From sequence record NC_048186.1: a stretch of 64,000 bases of DNA; one strand, given 5' to 3'. The position numbers and the translations under genes are program-made. Every line of letters starts with the position of its first letter. Position 1 is the first letter of the stretch. The stretch comes from Escherichia phage vB_EcoM_KWBSE43-6. Of this stretch, positions 55,996 to 58,662 are shown piece by piece. The notes below the pieces were generated by a model that ran no database searches, had not been told where the DNA came from, and saw nothing but the letters and a program-made list of their open reading frames with translations.

Positions 55996-58662
55996 AAAAT
56001 CTTTTAATTCATATTGTCGTGGACAATACCAAGACAGAGGGTTGGAATCTCTTATCCTATAGCGACCCATAAACCGTTTGATCAGTCCGGCCTAAAGGAT
56101 TACCCACGACAATATGAACTGTTTACTCTTTGGTCTGGGGGAGGATTTACCTCCCCCATTCCTCCCGGTTTGGGCAGCGATCTCTCACTCAACCAGGGCG
56201 CCGGCAAATTTTAGATCAATTCTACAGGTTTGTAACCGCGCTGTCGCCAAGTCATGTTGCTTCTCCTATCATTATTTGACCGCACATATGGCGGGCCGGG
56301 TTGTAATAGTTGAGTTGTGAACAACCAAGGGCTGCTAGACCTTTTATCCCGTTTGCGCATGATCAGTTCATGCGAGTCTTATCAAGCACCTTACGGCAAC
56401 TCTTCTGGATGTCATCGCCCTGCTGCCAGGCTCATCCCAGGAGTTTATTTTTCCAGGGCTTTCCACTTACAAGTCTTAACCAGACCGGGATACGGGCTTG
56501 TAAGATCGGGTTGGACACAACTTTGAGGACACTGACGACGTCTACTAGTCACCCATAACTGATATTCGGATGCCAGTATCCTCAAAGTTGCAACCAATGT
56601 CGCAACTCGCAGCTTCCATACAGAAGCAACTTGTCCTCTAACGCTCGGACCAAACGAGGCTGGCTGGTTGATTCAGAGCCGCTGGTTGCTCCAGCAAGCA
56701 TGGGTTGATAGCCCGGCAACATAGAATCACCCAAAGATGAAGAACACTCAGTGGTACAAGCCAGGGATACCAATTTCAGGTCCTTTGCGAGTTCTTTAAT
56801 GCTCTTCATTTTGTGAACTTGAGAATACTATACCTGTCTCGGGTTTCCCCTTAGTACGGTCACTCATTGTTCGTCACACCAGGGAGCTACCCTTGATGGC
56901 CCGCTTATTTTGAGTTGTTCCTGGTGCCCACCAGTGTCCGGAATGTATAGGCATCGCAGTCTACAAGGCACTGATCTTTTTCGCCCAGCGCTCTCTCAAG
57001 TTCACAAATCGAAGTGCCCTGACTCAACAGTTGTGGCCCAACATATTGTTATCGTCTACCGGGCTGGCCGTCCACTTTGTAGATCAACCTTTGGGTTTAA
57101 GATAAATTGTCAAGGCACTTCGATTTGGGTGCCCTTCACCTGCCAGGGATCAGGGCTGATGGCAAGACTTCGCTCACATCTGGGAGGTATCTCTTATCCG
57201 GATTCGAACCGGATTTATCCTGGCAGAGGAATCTAACCCCTTCACCTTGTCTTCACAAGGACGGTCAACAGACCTCAAGATACCTCCCAGATGTGGAGCC
57301 GTTTTAGGGAGTCGAACCCAAATGCTCGGCCAGCGCTGACCTTACATCCCACCTGACTTAGGCAACCCACCTCTGCTTACTCAGGAGCTTATCCCCTTTA
57401 GACAGTCAGATATAACGGCTTTGGGATTGGAGGGAGGAATCGAACCTCCCAGGGTGCTCCCCAAATCAGGGGCTGGCTCACGCCTGAAACCTGTTTAAGC
57501 ACCTGCTCCGCTCATTGTCGGCGGGAGATTATTAATCACACCCTCCCGCCTATTTTAGTGCGCCGAATTTTGTTATGAGGAATCGGAAGACCTCACTGAC
57601 TTATAGGCTATTACGCCGCCATCAGAACTACATCATCGTTTGCATTTATCTTTGTGGTCAGTTTCTAAAAACCCGCAAAGTCGCGCACAACGAGAACGAA
57701 AACCTGTTTGAGCACAAGACGCCATGTCCTGGATCACATCGAAGTGTTTGTCTAATGCCCAAACAGCTTTTCGCTTCAGTGGGTTAACTATACTTTGTTA
57801 ACCCTTATTGACAAAACTTTAAATTATTTTGCGGTGGTCGGAATCGAACCGACAGCTGGTTGAGCGCAGAGTCTTAGGAGAAGGTGCTAACCCGACCATC
57901 ACCAGCAAGCGTCGCACGGGACGCCTATCCTCGTCTGCCTATGTTCGCACACCATTCCTGTGCGTTCACCGCAATCTAATTTACCGGAACTTACGCATCC
58001 AGCCTCGCCCTGTTGGCGCTCCTAGAATCCGGGAAGACAGTAGGAACAATTATGTTACCAACAGGAAACCTTTGTGTTGCCCTTTGACGCAACATTATGA
58101 ACCCTCTTTAGAAGACTCATAATGTTGTCGGTGTGATGAGGATTACCAGCCCTCGACCTTCCCATCGTGCGGTGTCGACTCGCCGCCGGGATGCTCTCGT
58201 TCCTCTCCTGTAGATCGATATCAGGCAACCAACAGTGGTAACTTTCTGAGCTAATCACACTTTCAACAGGGAGTTTCGTTCTCCGACGGTCAGTGCGTCC
58301 ACTAACACCAGCAGGGTTACTGCGCTGCCTCTATTCACACAAGCCCCTGAGACTAGGGATTAACTGGTTTCGGGTTCAAGCCTACTCCCACTGTGCTGTT
58401 TCCCTTGAAATTTTATGATACTGCAACACGGCTAATTTGAAAAGTCCTCTCCTCTTGAGCAACAGGACCTGAAATCCTGCGGCGAACCTCTGCTCAAAAC
58501 CCGGTGCGCTATCGAAGGCGCTTTGCCAGAGTAAACATCGGGTGTTCCTAGGAGAGTGAAGGCCATCCCGATGATGAGGATAAGGAGTAACGCTATGATT
58601 ATCATACTGTTCCCTCCCTTCCATGCAACTTACTTTACTGTAATTCTGTATTGAATAAAGCG

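Follow-up and report, generated by a model that had tools for sequence, protein, structure and literature searches.

A 64,000-nucleotide (nt) window of DNA from Escherichia phage vB_EcoM_KWBSE43-6 (NC_048186.1), which is the whole stretch that was analysed, contains about 2.4 kb (positions 55996-58380) beside a group of seven tRNA genes. A first-pass annotation, made from the sequence alone, had described this region as poor in open reading frames (ORFs) and rich in tRNA-like hairpins. We show that the region carries, on the minus strand, a unit of ~190 nt that is homologous to the message domain of transfer-messenger RNA (tmRNA), and that the 5' domain of this unit is complementary to ssrA, the tmRNA gene of the host. 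On balance, the sequences favour a reading in which the region encodes a row of stable RNAs, one of them this tmRNA derivative, which would dock on the host tmRNA and either swap or block its tag. Trans-translation is the main bacterial ribosome-rescue pathway, and several phages depend on it. If the reading is true, a virus takes over a host quality-control machine in a new way, through a message-half RNA that pairs with host tmRNA, and nature provides a test of how much of the tmRNA architecture (the pseudoknot PK1, covalent continuity) ribosome hand-over needs. Should the mechanism be confirmed, it would be of a new kind; the unit itself is a tmRNA derivative.

A unit homologous to the message domain of tmRNA

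In BLAST comparisons, the segment at about 57528-57704 matched hundreds of unrelated phages, and alignment of eight such segments exposed a resume codon followed by a tag. The aligned core, AAAUAAAU-GCA-AAC-GAU-GAU-GUA-GUU-CUG-AUG-GCG-GCG-UAA, is of the tmRNA style and encodes the tag ANDDVVLMAA*. Two bases of the linker in front of it, U(-5) and A(-4), are invariant (21/21 family members), the context being [A/G]UAAAU and then GCA. The role of their E. coli equivalents, U85 and A86, has been described, A86 being the main determinant of frame choice on E. coli tmRNA (PMC2481249). No Shine-Dalgarno-like sequence could be read before the tag frame.

The tag was surveyed at 93 loci, which represent 74 distinct units, and codon statistics were calculated on 32 distinct ORF sequences. 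The tag was exactly 10 codons long in 74/74 distinct units, and the 17 peptides encoded follow the pattern AN[DE][DEN]xx[LMR]x[AV]A, with one of them ending in P. The P1 tag reads ANDDLMMVAA, and the endings found include LMAA, LAVA, and MVAA. Entropy at codon positions 1, 2, and 3 was 0.64, 0.42, and 0.96, respectively, while the ratio of nonsynonymous to synonymous polymorphism (pN/pS) was 0.55 in the tag frame versus 2.25 and 1.05 in the other two, where stops are nearly always present. We conclude that the tag frame is under coding-type, peptide-level constraint.

The 17-mer around the resume codon (TAAATGCAAACGAYRAY) is nearly diagnostic: it retrieved 120 loci from IMG/VR, nearly all of them with tmRNA-type tag ORFs; ARAGORN reported a tmRNA in 60 of 129 loci, almost always as a permuted two-piece gene. 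The viral contigs L069, L029, L126, L010, and L078 have two-piece tmRNA genes of the canonical permuted type, whose intervening segment contains promoter-like TATA boxes. The tag encoded by L069, ANDNAFLMAA, is also the tag of the unit of Serratia phage Kevin, which has no tRNA-like domain (TLD), and this hints at the ancestry of the tmRNA-like family.

The structure of the unit (Table 1) was scored on an alignment of 21 diverse members. In this alignment, 88.6% of cells were paired, versus 37-55% when the partners were slid by 1-3 columns, and 17 of 22 pairs changed on both sides (14 of 18 in the two H-type pseudoknots). The covariation score was 0.429 versus 0.12-0.20, and 0/500 shuffles reached 0.429. 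The second stem of pseudoknot a covaries (CCGA/UCGG, CCAA/UUGG, CCAG/CUGG, GUCG/CGAC); it seems weaker because one subtype (P1, Kevin, PD205) is offset by two alignment columns. In P1, an extra hairpin, CUGG-UGUGAUUAA-CCAG, resembles the pseudoknot-b loop of the other subtype.

Curated detectors see little of this. The best Rfam match at the unit was tmRNA_permuted (57611-57875, E = 0.0036, tag region aligned), with 25.5 bits against a gathering score of 47, while the alpha_tmRNA model gave 15.9 bits against a threshold of 50. ARAGORN made no call on the unit in the window, P1, wV8, Vi01, or CBA120.

Complementarity of the 5' domain to host ssrA

From its 5' end up to the linker, the unit has 40-51 nt of well-conserved sequence, with segments such as GCGACU and GUUUUCGU, in which RNAalifold detects no conserved cis-structure. 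In nearly every member, the reverse complement of this 5' domain aligned locally to ssrA 65-106, and sense-strand scores were at background. The reverse complement of the 5' domain of phage Bas81, GGUCAGUUUC-UAAAAAGUCCGCAAA-----GUCGCUCA---CGAAAACUA, was aligned in this way to E. coli ssrA 57-106, GGUUGGCCUCGUAAAAAG-CCGCAAAAAAUAGUCGCAAACGACGAAAACUA.

When duplexes were predicted with RNAduplex, 36/36 distinct 5' domains paired end to end with E. coli ssrA nt 56-105/106 through 33-40 base pairs (bp). Duplex energies ranged from -34 to -49.5 kcal/mol, with a mean of -43.5, compared with -21.5 (standard deviation ~3.7) for shuffled sequences; the figure for 5' domains against the phage's own resume and tag region was -15.9 kcal/mol. 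The domain of the window formed 41 bp with Klebsiella pneumoniae ssrA, at -44.9 kcal/mol. We conclude that the end-to-end complementarity of the 5' domain to host ssrA exceeds chance throughout the family.

Within ssrA, the predicted duplex takes in the 3' strand of each PK1 stem, the A-rich linker that bears U85/A86, the resume codon at G90, and the first five to six codons. The 40-nt core of this target has an exact match in K. pneumoniae ATCC 13883, E. coli, Enterobacter, Citrobacter, Kluyvera, Kosakonia, and others, and nt 50-125 of K. pneumoniae ssrA are identical to those of E. coli. The phage message differs from the host message where the 5' domain pairs (AAAUGC versus AGUCGC; ACGAUGAU versus ACGAAAAC), which suggests that the 5' domain discriminates host from self.

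The tRNA half of tmRNA is missing

The unit has the resume context, the tag, stop codons within helix 5, and the pseudoknots of a tmRNA; it has no tRNA-like domain, no PK1 or P2, and no score that satisfies the curated detectors. No acceptor strand was found 5' of the unit, and the 5' domain, in which RNAalifold detected no conserved cis-structure, contains no P2 or PK1 elements. The G3.U70 pair is absent from the neighbouring tRNA-like RNAs (i) and (iv) (Table 1), both of which have C3-G70, and a CCA is encoded only in (iii) and (iv). Two candidates for the missing parts were rejected. A P2-like helix (GTGCTC in the 57720s with GAGCAC in the 57460s), which would close the unit next to the T-arm of (iii), is not kept in CBA120-type and Vi01-type genomes. 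A one-piece tmRNA at 57764-57422, pairing GTTTGGG with the acceptor strand of (iii), matches at 6/7 positions, with two G.U pairs, a U.C mismatch, and no G3.U70; comparable 6/7 matches arise for the genuine tRNA-Met, and (iii) is variable or absent in relatives.

The start of the RNA was judged from sequences upstream of the unit. In wV8, a promoter-like TTGACA-17-TATAGT box, as read from the sequence, stops 6 nt short of the conserved AGUUUUCG. A promoter-like TTGACA-17-TAGATT was read in the same manner in Bas81 and Vibrio phage pYD38-A, where 11 nt separate the end of its -10 box from AGTTTTCG. In P1, the unit is directly preceded by the terminator of a DicF-like region. Promoter-like boxes and a terminator so close to AGUUUUCG suggest that the RNA begins at or near this sequence, which would leave no room for an acceptor strand, and the 5' end of the unit RNA is accordingly predicted to lie near AGGUUUUCG.

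The phage might nonetheless possess a self-contained two-piece tmRNA, with the unit as its coding piece and a neighbouring tRNA-like RNA, either (i), 210 nt upstream, or (iii), as its acceptor. We consider this quite improbable. It is true that complete two-piece phage tmRNAs are known (PMC9004378; L069 and L029 above), that the weak tmRNA_permuted match spans both (i) and the tag, and that every one of the Ackermannviridae sampled has a T-arm at -210, a position that falls between the limits seen in canonical permuted phage tmRNAs (-172 to -291). However, both acceptor strands are deleted in the tmRNA_permuted alignment. In the window, the 3' strand that follows the T-arm at -210, CACCGCA, pairs 7/7 with TGCGGTG located 120 nt further upstream, which makes (i) a closed RNA of 144 nt with U1-A72, G2-C71, and C3-G70 and no CCA. 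Other genera have different mini tRNA-like RNAs at the positions of (i) and (iii), or none at that of (iii), and many family members have no T-arm within 600 nt of the unit; the lack of an acceptor strand at the 5' end of the unit and the poor conservation of the GTGCTC/GAGCAC helix also argue against this arrangement. A point on its side comes from wV8, where a tRNA-like RNA with G3.U70, A73, and CCA occurs ~40 nt downstream of the unit.

This wV8 RNA (L004, reverse strand ~2671-2749; locus coordinates ~2349-2427) is 78 nt long and combines C1-G72, G2-C71, G3.U70, A73, and CCA, that is, alanine identity. A capped stem replaces the anticodon arm, there is no D-arm, and ARAGORN is silent on it. 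In phages of the Felix O1 type, it could act as a partner that consists of the TLD alone.

The unit may be compared with both known forms of tmRNA. With one-piece tmRNA (ssrA, RF00023) it shares the message domain, the equivalents of U85/A86, stops in helix 5, and downstream H-type pseudoknots; it differs in length (~190 versus ~363 nt), in the number of pseudoknots (two versus four), in having no tRNA-like domain, G3.U70, or CCA, and in its 5' third, which is antisense rather than homologous to ssrA. The two-piece permuted tmRNAs of Alphaproteobacteria, cyanobacteria, and marine phages such as Melnitz (PMC9004378) also have a message RNA tied to its acceptor by base pairing only, and resemble the unit in the resume context TAAAT-GCA-AAC-GAY, in a hydrophobic-plus-AA tag, and in pseudoknots after the tag; they are also the best Rfam match. 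Unlike them, the unit is without acceptor strand, D-loop, P2 helix, and PK1, and its proposed partner is the one-piece tmRNA of the host, not a cognate acceptor piece.

Proposed docking on host tmRNA

In the mechanism that we propose, the tmRNA derivative has kept the message half, namely an A-rich strand, the GCA resume codon, a 10-codon hydrophobic-plus-Ala-Ala tag, stops within a stem, and two pseudoknots. The tRNA half has been lost, with the 5' domain antisense to ssrA replacing the acceptor strand, D-loop, and PK1. The phage RNA would dock on host tmRNA by forming the duplex, PK1 would open, and the host resume codon, the frame-setting bases U85/A86, and the first codons would be buried. 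The phage resume codon would lie 11-12 nt beyond the end of the duplex, and the linker would emerge at host nt ~57, beside helix P2 and the tRNA-like domain. Such a complex would amount to a virus-host "two-piece tmRNA", the duplex taking the place of PK1. Alanyl-tmRNA and SmpB could then continue to rescue stalled ribosomes, and the tag appended would be the phage ANDDVVLMAA and not ANDENYALAA. The minimum effect would be that host tagging is blocked. In its most far-reaching form, a virus-host chimeric tmRNA, joined by a duplex of ~40 bp, would operate in at least eight phage lineages (P1, Felix O1-like, Vi01-like, N4-like, lambdoid, and others) and reprogram trans-translation with a phage 10-residue tag that alters protease or adaptor recognition; we put this forward tentatively, with rather more doubt than confidence.

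Several points weigh against docking and tag swapping. The shuffles of the duplex test were mononucleotide shuffles, and RNAduplex ignores intramolecular structure, while the host PK1 stems must open for the duplex to form. Local alignments of single sequences are modest, with 0-48/300 shuffles reaching the observed score. The family members are related, so the 36 domains are not 36 independent tests, and the ssrA target is invariant among the hosts sampled. At one locus (L117), an unrelated hairpin takes the place of most of the 5' domain. The copy in the window lies between tRNA-like RNAs, which may supply a function that we did not recognise. The mechanism would also require a ribosome to load a message that is held only by a duplex at the position of PK1. 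Expression, pairing in vivo, and tag swapping are inferred from the sequences.

The same complementarity could be read as that of a pure antisense inhibitor or sponge of host tmRNA, whose message-like part escapes translation and serves only as a mimic of tmRNA that binds SmpB, S1, or RNase R. The 5' domain covers the host resume codon, U85/A86, and PK1, and the phage message has no linked tRNA-like domain. There is also a precedent, in that the TLD-only molecule of mycobacteriophage DS6A is a partial tmRNA that inhibits tmRNA (PMC4131195, PMC11915505). An untranslated decoy should not, however, have a constrained tag frame, and that of the unit has 10 codons, changes mainly at third positions, a pN/pS of 0.55, and a conserved stop and hydrophobic C-terminus. 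The inhibitor explanation is thus unlikely, and the coding-type constraint on the tag leads us to prefer tag swapping to inhibition alone.

The DS6A molecule resembles the unit in being a half-tmRNA carried by a phage, and it is reported to inhibit the host tmRNA when expressed in E. coli (PMC4131195, PMC11915505). It is a mirror image of the unit, because DS6A keeps the tRNA half and the unit the message half, and the contact proposed here is RNA-RNA pairing, not titration of SmpB. A different likeness is with RNA sponges. Phage-borne anti-small RNAs of this sort include AgvB and AsxR of Shiga toxin (Stx) prophages. As in these, a prophage RNA would present a 5' segment complementary to a regulatory RNA of the host, and one chromosomal copy of the unit lies in a Q-to-lysis late region. 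The unit differs from AgvB and AsxR in its target, which is tmRNA and not an Hfq-dependent small RNA (sRNA), in a pairing of 33-40 bp instead of a short seed, and in its translatable tag module.

Distribution and annotation of the unit

The unit was found in 721 of 50,697 phage records (~1.4%), which belong to Ackermannviridae, Felixounavirus, Schitoviridae, P1/P7, and lambdoid and other siphoviruses. It was seen in myoviruses of the Felix O1 type, in P1, in N4-like podoviruses, in siphoviruses with genomes of 46-60 kb, and in one Vibrio phage. Among its carriers are the model phage P1, Vi01, CBA120, and Felix O1-like phages, as well as many therapy-relevant isolates of Klebsiella, Salmonella, and E. 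coli phages. In nearly all contexts examined, tRNA genes are located nearby on the same strand. In P1, the unit is in the ban operon, immediately after an annotated "dicF-like region" and its terminator (L002 2585-2686), with 330 nt between the unit and tRNA-Asn.

Of 5426 complete E. coli genomes, 639 (~12%) contain the unit, with 150 places on chromosomes and 537 on plasmids. One chromosomal copy was examined, that of strain 55989, and it stands between the Q antiterminator and the holin. Among the E. coli records listed, either no feature or a hypothetical protein lies under the match. In the records examined, the unit is essentially never annotated as an RNA, being either unannotated or covered by "hypothetical protein" calls.

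According to tmRNA database papers, phage ssrA occurs only in mycobacteriophages, Bacillus phage G, and DS6A, the latter as a TLD-only form (PMC4131195, PMC11915505). ARAGORN-detectable tmRNAs have been reported in 2.3% of phage genomes, two-piece forms being mostly marine (PMC9004378). Searches of the literature for phage tmRNA-like RNAs, antisense RNAs to ssrA, and six tag peptides of the family returned nothing describing this element.

A recurrent module, CACAACAGGUAAGRGCAYU ... AGUGCUCUUUCC, often adjoins the unit in other phages (L001, L002, L041, L065, L105, L132, L133, and L134) and is absent from the window. Its closing stem is 9 bp long, and its insert varies and sometimes contains a T-arm.

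Neighbouring tRNA-like RNAs

The unit lies in an array of other structured elements, the coordinates of which are given in Table 1.

Table 1. Features of the stable-RNA region and its surroundings (positions in the window)
Feature	Position	Strand	Description
tmRNA-like unit	57705-57520	minus	~190 nt; resume codon, tag, helix-5-like stem, two pseudoknots
5' domain of the unit	57655-57705	minus	51 nt; antisense to host ssrA nt 56-106
Single-stranded linker CAAAGAUAAAU	57644-57654	minus	carries U(-5) and A(-4), equivalents of E. coli U85 and A86
Tag frame	57611-57643	minus	GCA AAC GAT GAT GTA GTT CTG ATG GCG GCG TAA (ANDDVVLMAA*); second stop TAG after it
Helix-5-like stem	57596-57625	minus	CUGA/UCAG; encloses tag end and stop codons; 95% of cells paired, 3/4 pairs change on both sides
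Pseudoknot a	57563-57595	minus	helices 2 and 3; UGAGG/CCUCA, loop CCGA with downstream UCGG
Pseudoknot b	57520-57562	minus	helices 4 and 5; CGCAC/GUGUG interleaved with GGCGGGAG/CUCCCGCC, conserved loop AUUAAUAA; 94% and 90% of cells paired, 7/9 pairs change on both sides
Direct repeat GTGCTTAAACAGGTTT	57487-57502, partner 57715-57700	minus	16 nt, 94% identical, spacing 213 (family D2)
Promoter-like TTGTCA-16-TATAGT	57787-57814	minus	10/12 positions; best minus-strand promoter match in 53900-58800; upstream of the unit; kept in relatives
tRNA-like RNA (i)	57973-57826	minus	7/7 acceptor stem TGCGGTG/CACCGCA (57973-57829, 144 nt), D-arm-like hairpin, long insert, T-arm 57853-57837
Element (iii)	57486-57422	minus	small hairpin, T-arm 57449-57433, then CTCCAAT-C-CCA; variable cassette position
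tRNA-like RNA (iv)	57419-57294	minus	123 nt; 6-bp acceptor stem GCCGUU/AACGGC, two long arms, T-arm 57321-57305, U73, encoded CCA
Element (v)	57295-57175	minus	perfect 18-bp closing stem, four-hairpin tRNA-like core, T-arm 57213-57197, no anticodon loop (I5)
Block A	57979-58360	minus	~380 nt structured RNA, long-range closing pairs CTCCCTGTTG/CAACAGGG
Block D	56810-57180	minus	~370 nt; 18-19-bp internal helix 57127-57109/57023-57005 (inverted repeat I4)
Block E	56314-56664	minus	two hairpins and an ornate multi-branch domain of ~185 nt (56500-56316)
Element F	56008-56118	minus	~110 nt; 15-20-bp closing stem, immediately 5' of tRNA-Met (I3); 83% identical in Vi01
Intrinsic terminator	54255-54232	minus	sole minus-strand one in 53900-58800; after the last tRNA; outside the 2.4-kb region

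The first-pass annotation had pointed to at least four perfect T-arm-like hairpins in minus orientation, and these were confirmed as copies of GGTTCRANTCC at 57200-57210, 57308-57318, 57436-57446, and 57840-57850. Three of them do have perfect 5-bp stems, while the one at 57321-57305 pairs at 4/5 positions. The 64-kb window holds nine copies of the motif, all on the minus strand between 54322 and 57850 and five of them inside called tRNAs, against an expectation of 0.32 (dinucleotide shuffles, 0/100 of which reached nine). That two hairpins are followed by seven nucleotides, a discriminator, and CCA also proved correct (CTCCAAT-C-CCA ending at 57422; AAACGGC-T-CCA ending at 57294). The 5' halves, which could not be folded in canonical form at first, can be supplied in a different form: three of the four hairpins, those of (i), (iv), and (v), are closable into tRNA-like RNAs, and these have no anticodon loop.

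RNA (i) has discriminator A and no encoded CCA and is also present in Vi01; at the same place, CBA120 and ChubbyThor have a different mini tRNA-like RNA of 64 nt (G[C/U]GAGG/CCUCG[C/U]). At the position of (iii), CBA120-type genomes have a closed mini tRNA-like RNA of 65 nt, Vi01 and P01 have other sequences, and L142 has nothing. RNA (iv) shows about a dozen variable columns across 14 Taipeivirus and Kuttervirus sequences, its flanks being ~75% identical, and one of its pairs changes on both sides (GGUC/GGCC to GGUU/GACC). The stem of (v) covaries among genomes (GG/CC, UA/UA, UU/AA), and its apical cassette is tRNA-like in the window, a different T-arm element in Kuttervirus, and a plain hairpin in P01.

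Over 57180-57990, the Rfam tRNA model (RF00005) gave no match at E <=10 and ARAGORN made no call, none of the four hairpins being recognised by either, and the folds contain no 7-nt anticodon loop. The suggestion that these are divergent or interrupted tRNAs was therefore not borne out, given the large inserts, the missing anticodon loop, and the silence of tRNA models. On the same grounds, the alternative suggestion of tRNA-derived stable RNAs like T4 species 1 and 2 is a fair analogy. T4 species 1 and 2 belong to a phage tRNA cluster and are small, stable RNAs without a known function, for which processing by tRNA enzymes is presumed. They are fewer and smaller than the elements of the window, which form blocks of 110-380 nt; the two sets are likened by description only, and T4 was not among the BLAST matches. 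A check of the region with covariance models, which had been recommended, gave a divided answer, since no model reached its gathering score (tmRNA_permuted, at the scores given above, came closest), while covariation in alignments of relatives supports structure.

The individual RNAs would presumably be released from a common transcript by host enzymes; the tRNA-like ends are candidate sites for RNase P and 3'-end processing, and the closing stems of 15-18 bp for RNase III. The tRNA-like hairpins might act not as effectors but as processing punctuation for RNase P and 3'-end enzymes, or as decoys for tRNA-targeting host enzymes or defences. They flank other RNAs within a unit that has a single terminator, mini tRNA-like RNAs directly precede the tmRNA-like unit in several unrelated phages, and the cores vary while the closing stems covary. 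Such a role is nevertheless somewhat unlikely: RNA (iv) is conserved over all 123 nt and not just in the acceptor stem and T-arm, which argues for a function of its own, and the decoy idea is without direct support.

Structured blocks A, D, E, and F

Compensatory changes were also found in the larger blocks. Both sides change in 10 of 101 RNAalifold pairs of block A, which has long invariant stretches (alignment A3, 10 Ackermannviridae sequences), in 19 of 89 pairs of block D (alignment A4), and in 20 of 89 pairs of block E (alignment A2). Block E matches 279 phage records and is kept in every Ackermannviridae genus sampled, and blocks A, D, and E are confined to Ackermannviridae. Together with RNA (iv), these blocks are unexplained structured RNAs in a well-studied phage family. 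As large ornate RNAs beside phage tRNA genes they are reminiscent of the Rfam families GOLLD and ROOL, from which they differ in giving no Rfam match at E <=10.

Could the T-arm hairpins and the tag-like sequence be no more than decaying remnants, functionless pseudogenes of tRNAs and of a captured tmRNA? Their failure to be recognised by tRNA models and the variation of cassettes (iii) and (v) between genomes would fit such decay. We consider it highly improbable, because 721 phage genomes from unrelated families retain the unit, its structure covaries, and its tag frame is under purifying selection, while (iv) is conserved far above its flanks and blocks A, D, and E show compensatory changes. 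The earlier interpretation is thus partly supported: the region is non-coding and structured, and what had been missed is the tmRNA-like unit between hairpins (i) and (iii), together with blocks A, D, E, and F.

Block E includes a 49-nt hairpin (56460-56508) for which a segment with 96% identity occurs in Klebsiella phage KP13-26, an unrelated phage of 144 kb (hit H100). In P01 (L001 3272-3486, equivalent to ~56612), in the IME250-like L141, and in ChubbyThor, the upstream part of block E contains an insertion of 170-240 nt that is absent from the window. The P01 record labels this insertion as the sRNA STnc100, and STnc100 was rejected as the identity of the region, as it sits in an insertion that the window does not have.

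Coding capacity and known RNA families

The claim that about 2.4 kb contain no convincing ORF was upheld, as no ORF in 55996-58380 is conserved and the longest one overlapping it has 108 amino acids (aa). Every ORF of at least 35 aa in this region was translated and compared with five relatives. In Kuttervirus, Agtrevirus, Limestonevirus, and Miltonvirus relatives, these ORFs had no counterpart, were interrupted by stops, or matched equally well in overlapping frames, a pattern that points to conservation of nucleotides and not of proteins. The ORFs annotated across the 2.4 kb in some records are therefore probably spurious. Only one PHROG match was obtained in the region, between the ORF at 58055-58258 (minus strand) and PHROG 38060 (43 aa, unknown function; E = 6e-31), and this ORF is broken by stops in relatives; PHROG 38060 is probably a family of ORFs miscalled on conserved non-coding DNA. 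The same ORF has a faint match to HNH endonucleases (E = 0.006). An ATG-initiated ORF of 75 aa at 56582-56809 was rejected as a gene, since it has no PHROG match and no intact Kuttervirus counterpart and is broken by an insertion in P01.

Known RNA families did not account for the region either. At gathering scores, Rfam reported just the seven tRNAs, and neither ARAGORN nor Rfam reported anything in 55996-58380. At E <=10, the weak tmRNA matches were accompanied by noise (snoRNA and miRNA models), and no GOLLD, ROOL, or YrlA match was obtained in 53500-59500. None of blocks A, D, E, and F or of RNAs (i), (iii), (iv), and (v), an array that is structured and shows covariation, is recognised by tRNA or Rfam models.

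Layout of the region and its relatives

The region is 98% identical to that of Klebsiella phage phi1_175010 and 93-95% identical to those of the Taipeivirus phages 0507-KN2-1, Menlow, and Magnus. About 80% of it can be aligned to Kuttervirus (Vi01, CBA120) at 75-80% identity, and parts of it to Agtrevirus, Limestonevirus, and Miltonvirus. In the records of relatives, the stretch is unannotated or carries 7-12 "hypothetical proteins".

The seven minus-strand tRNAs found by ARAGORN and Rfam lie at 54308-55995. The region had been placed downstream of them in the minus sense, which was wrong; it is upstream (5'), and the sole terminator, presumed to be the end of the operon, follows the last tRNA. 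The region and the tRNAs look like one minus-strand stable-RNA operon extending from ~58400 to the terminator at 54232. We lean towards the view that 55996-58380 makes up the 5' two-thirds of a polycistronic "stable RNA" operon in a Taipeivirus-like Klebsiella phage (Ackermannviridae), with a row of structured non-coding RNAs that would be followed by the seven tRNAs. Besides the promoter-like sequence in front of the tmRNA-like unit, a second such site, TTTTCA-17-TATCAT, is present on the minus strand at 58415-58443, just after a small conserved ORF (58432-58605), and could drive block A and RNA (i). The direct repeats listed in Table 1 bracket the tmRNA-like unit, as expected of a cassette that moves between genomes.

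Two further ORF-less gaps of ~420 nt, with only weak Rfam noise (sX4), lie between called tRNAs at 54626-55043 and 55502-55919. HNH homing-endonuclease genes are inserted at differing points of the RNA island in CBA120, 0507-KN2-1, and Mutine; in CBA120 (L006, 2060-2473), the HNH endonuclease orf221 is located between block E and tRNA-Met.

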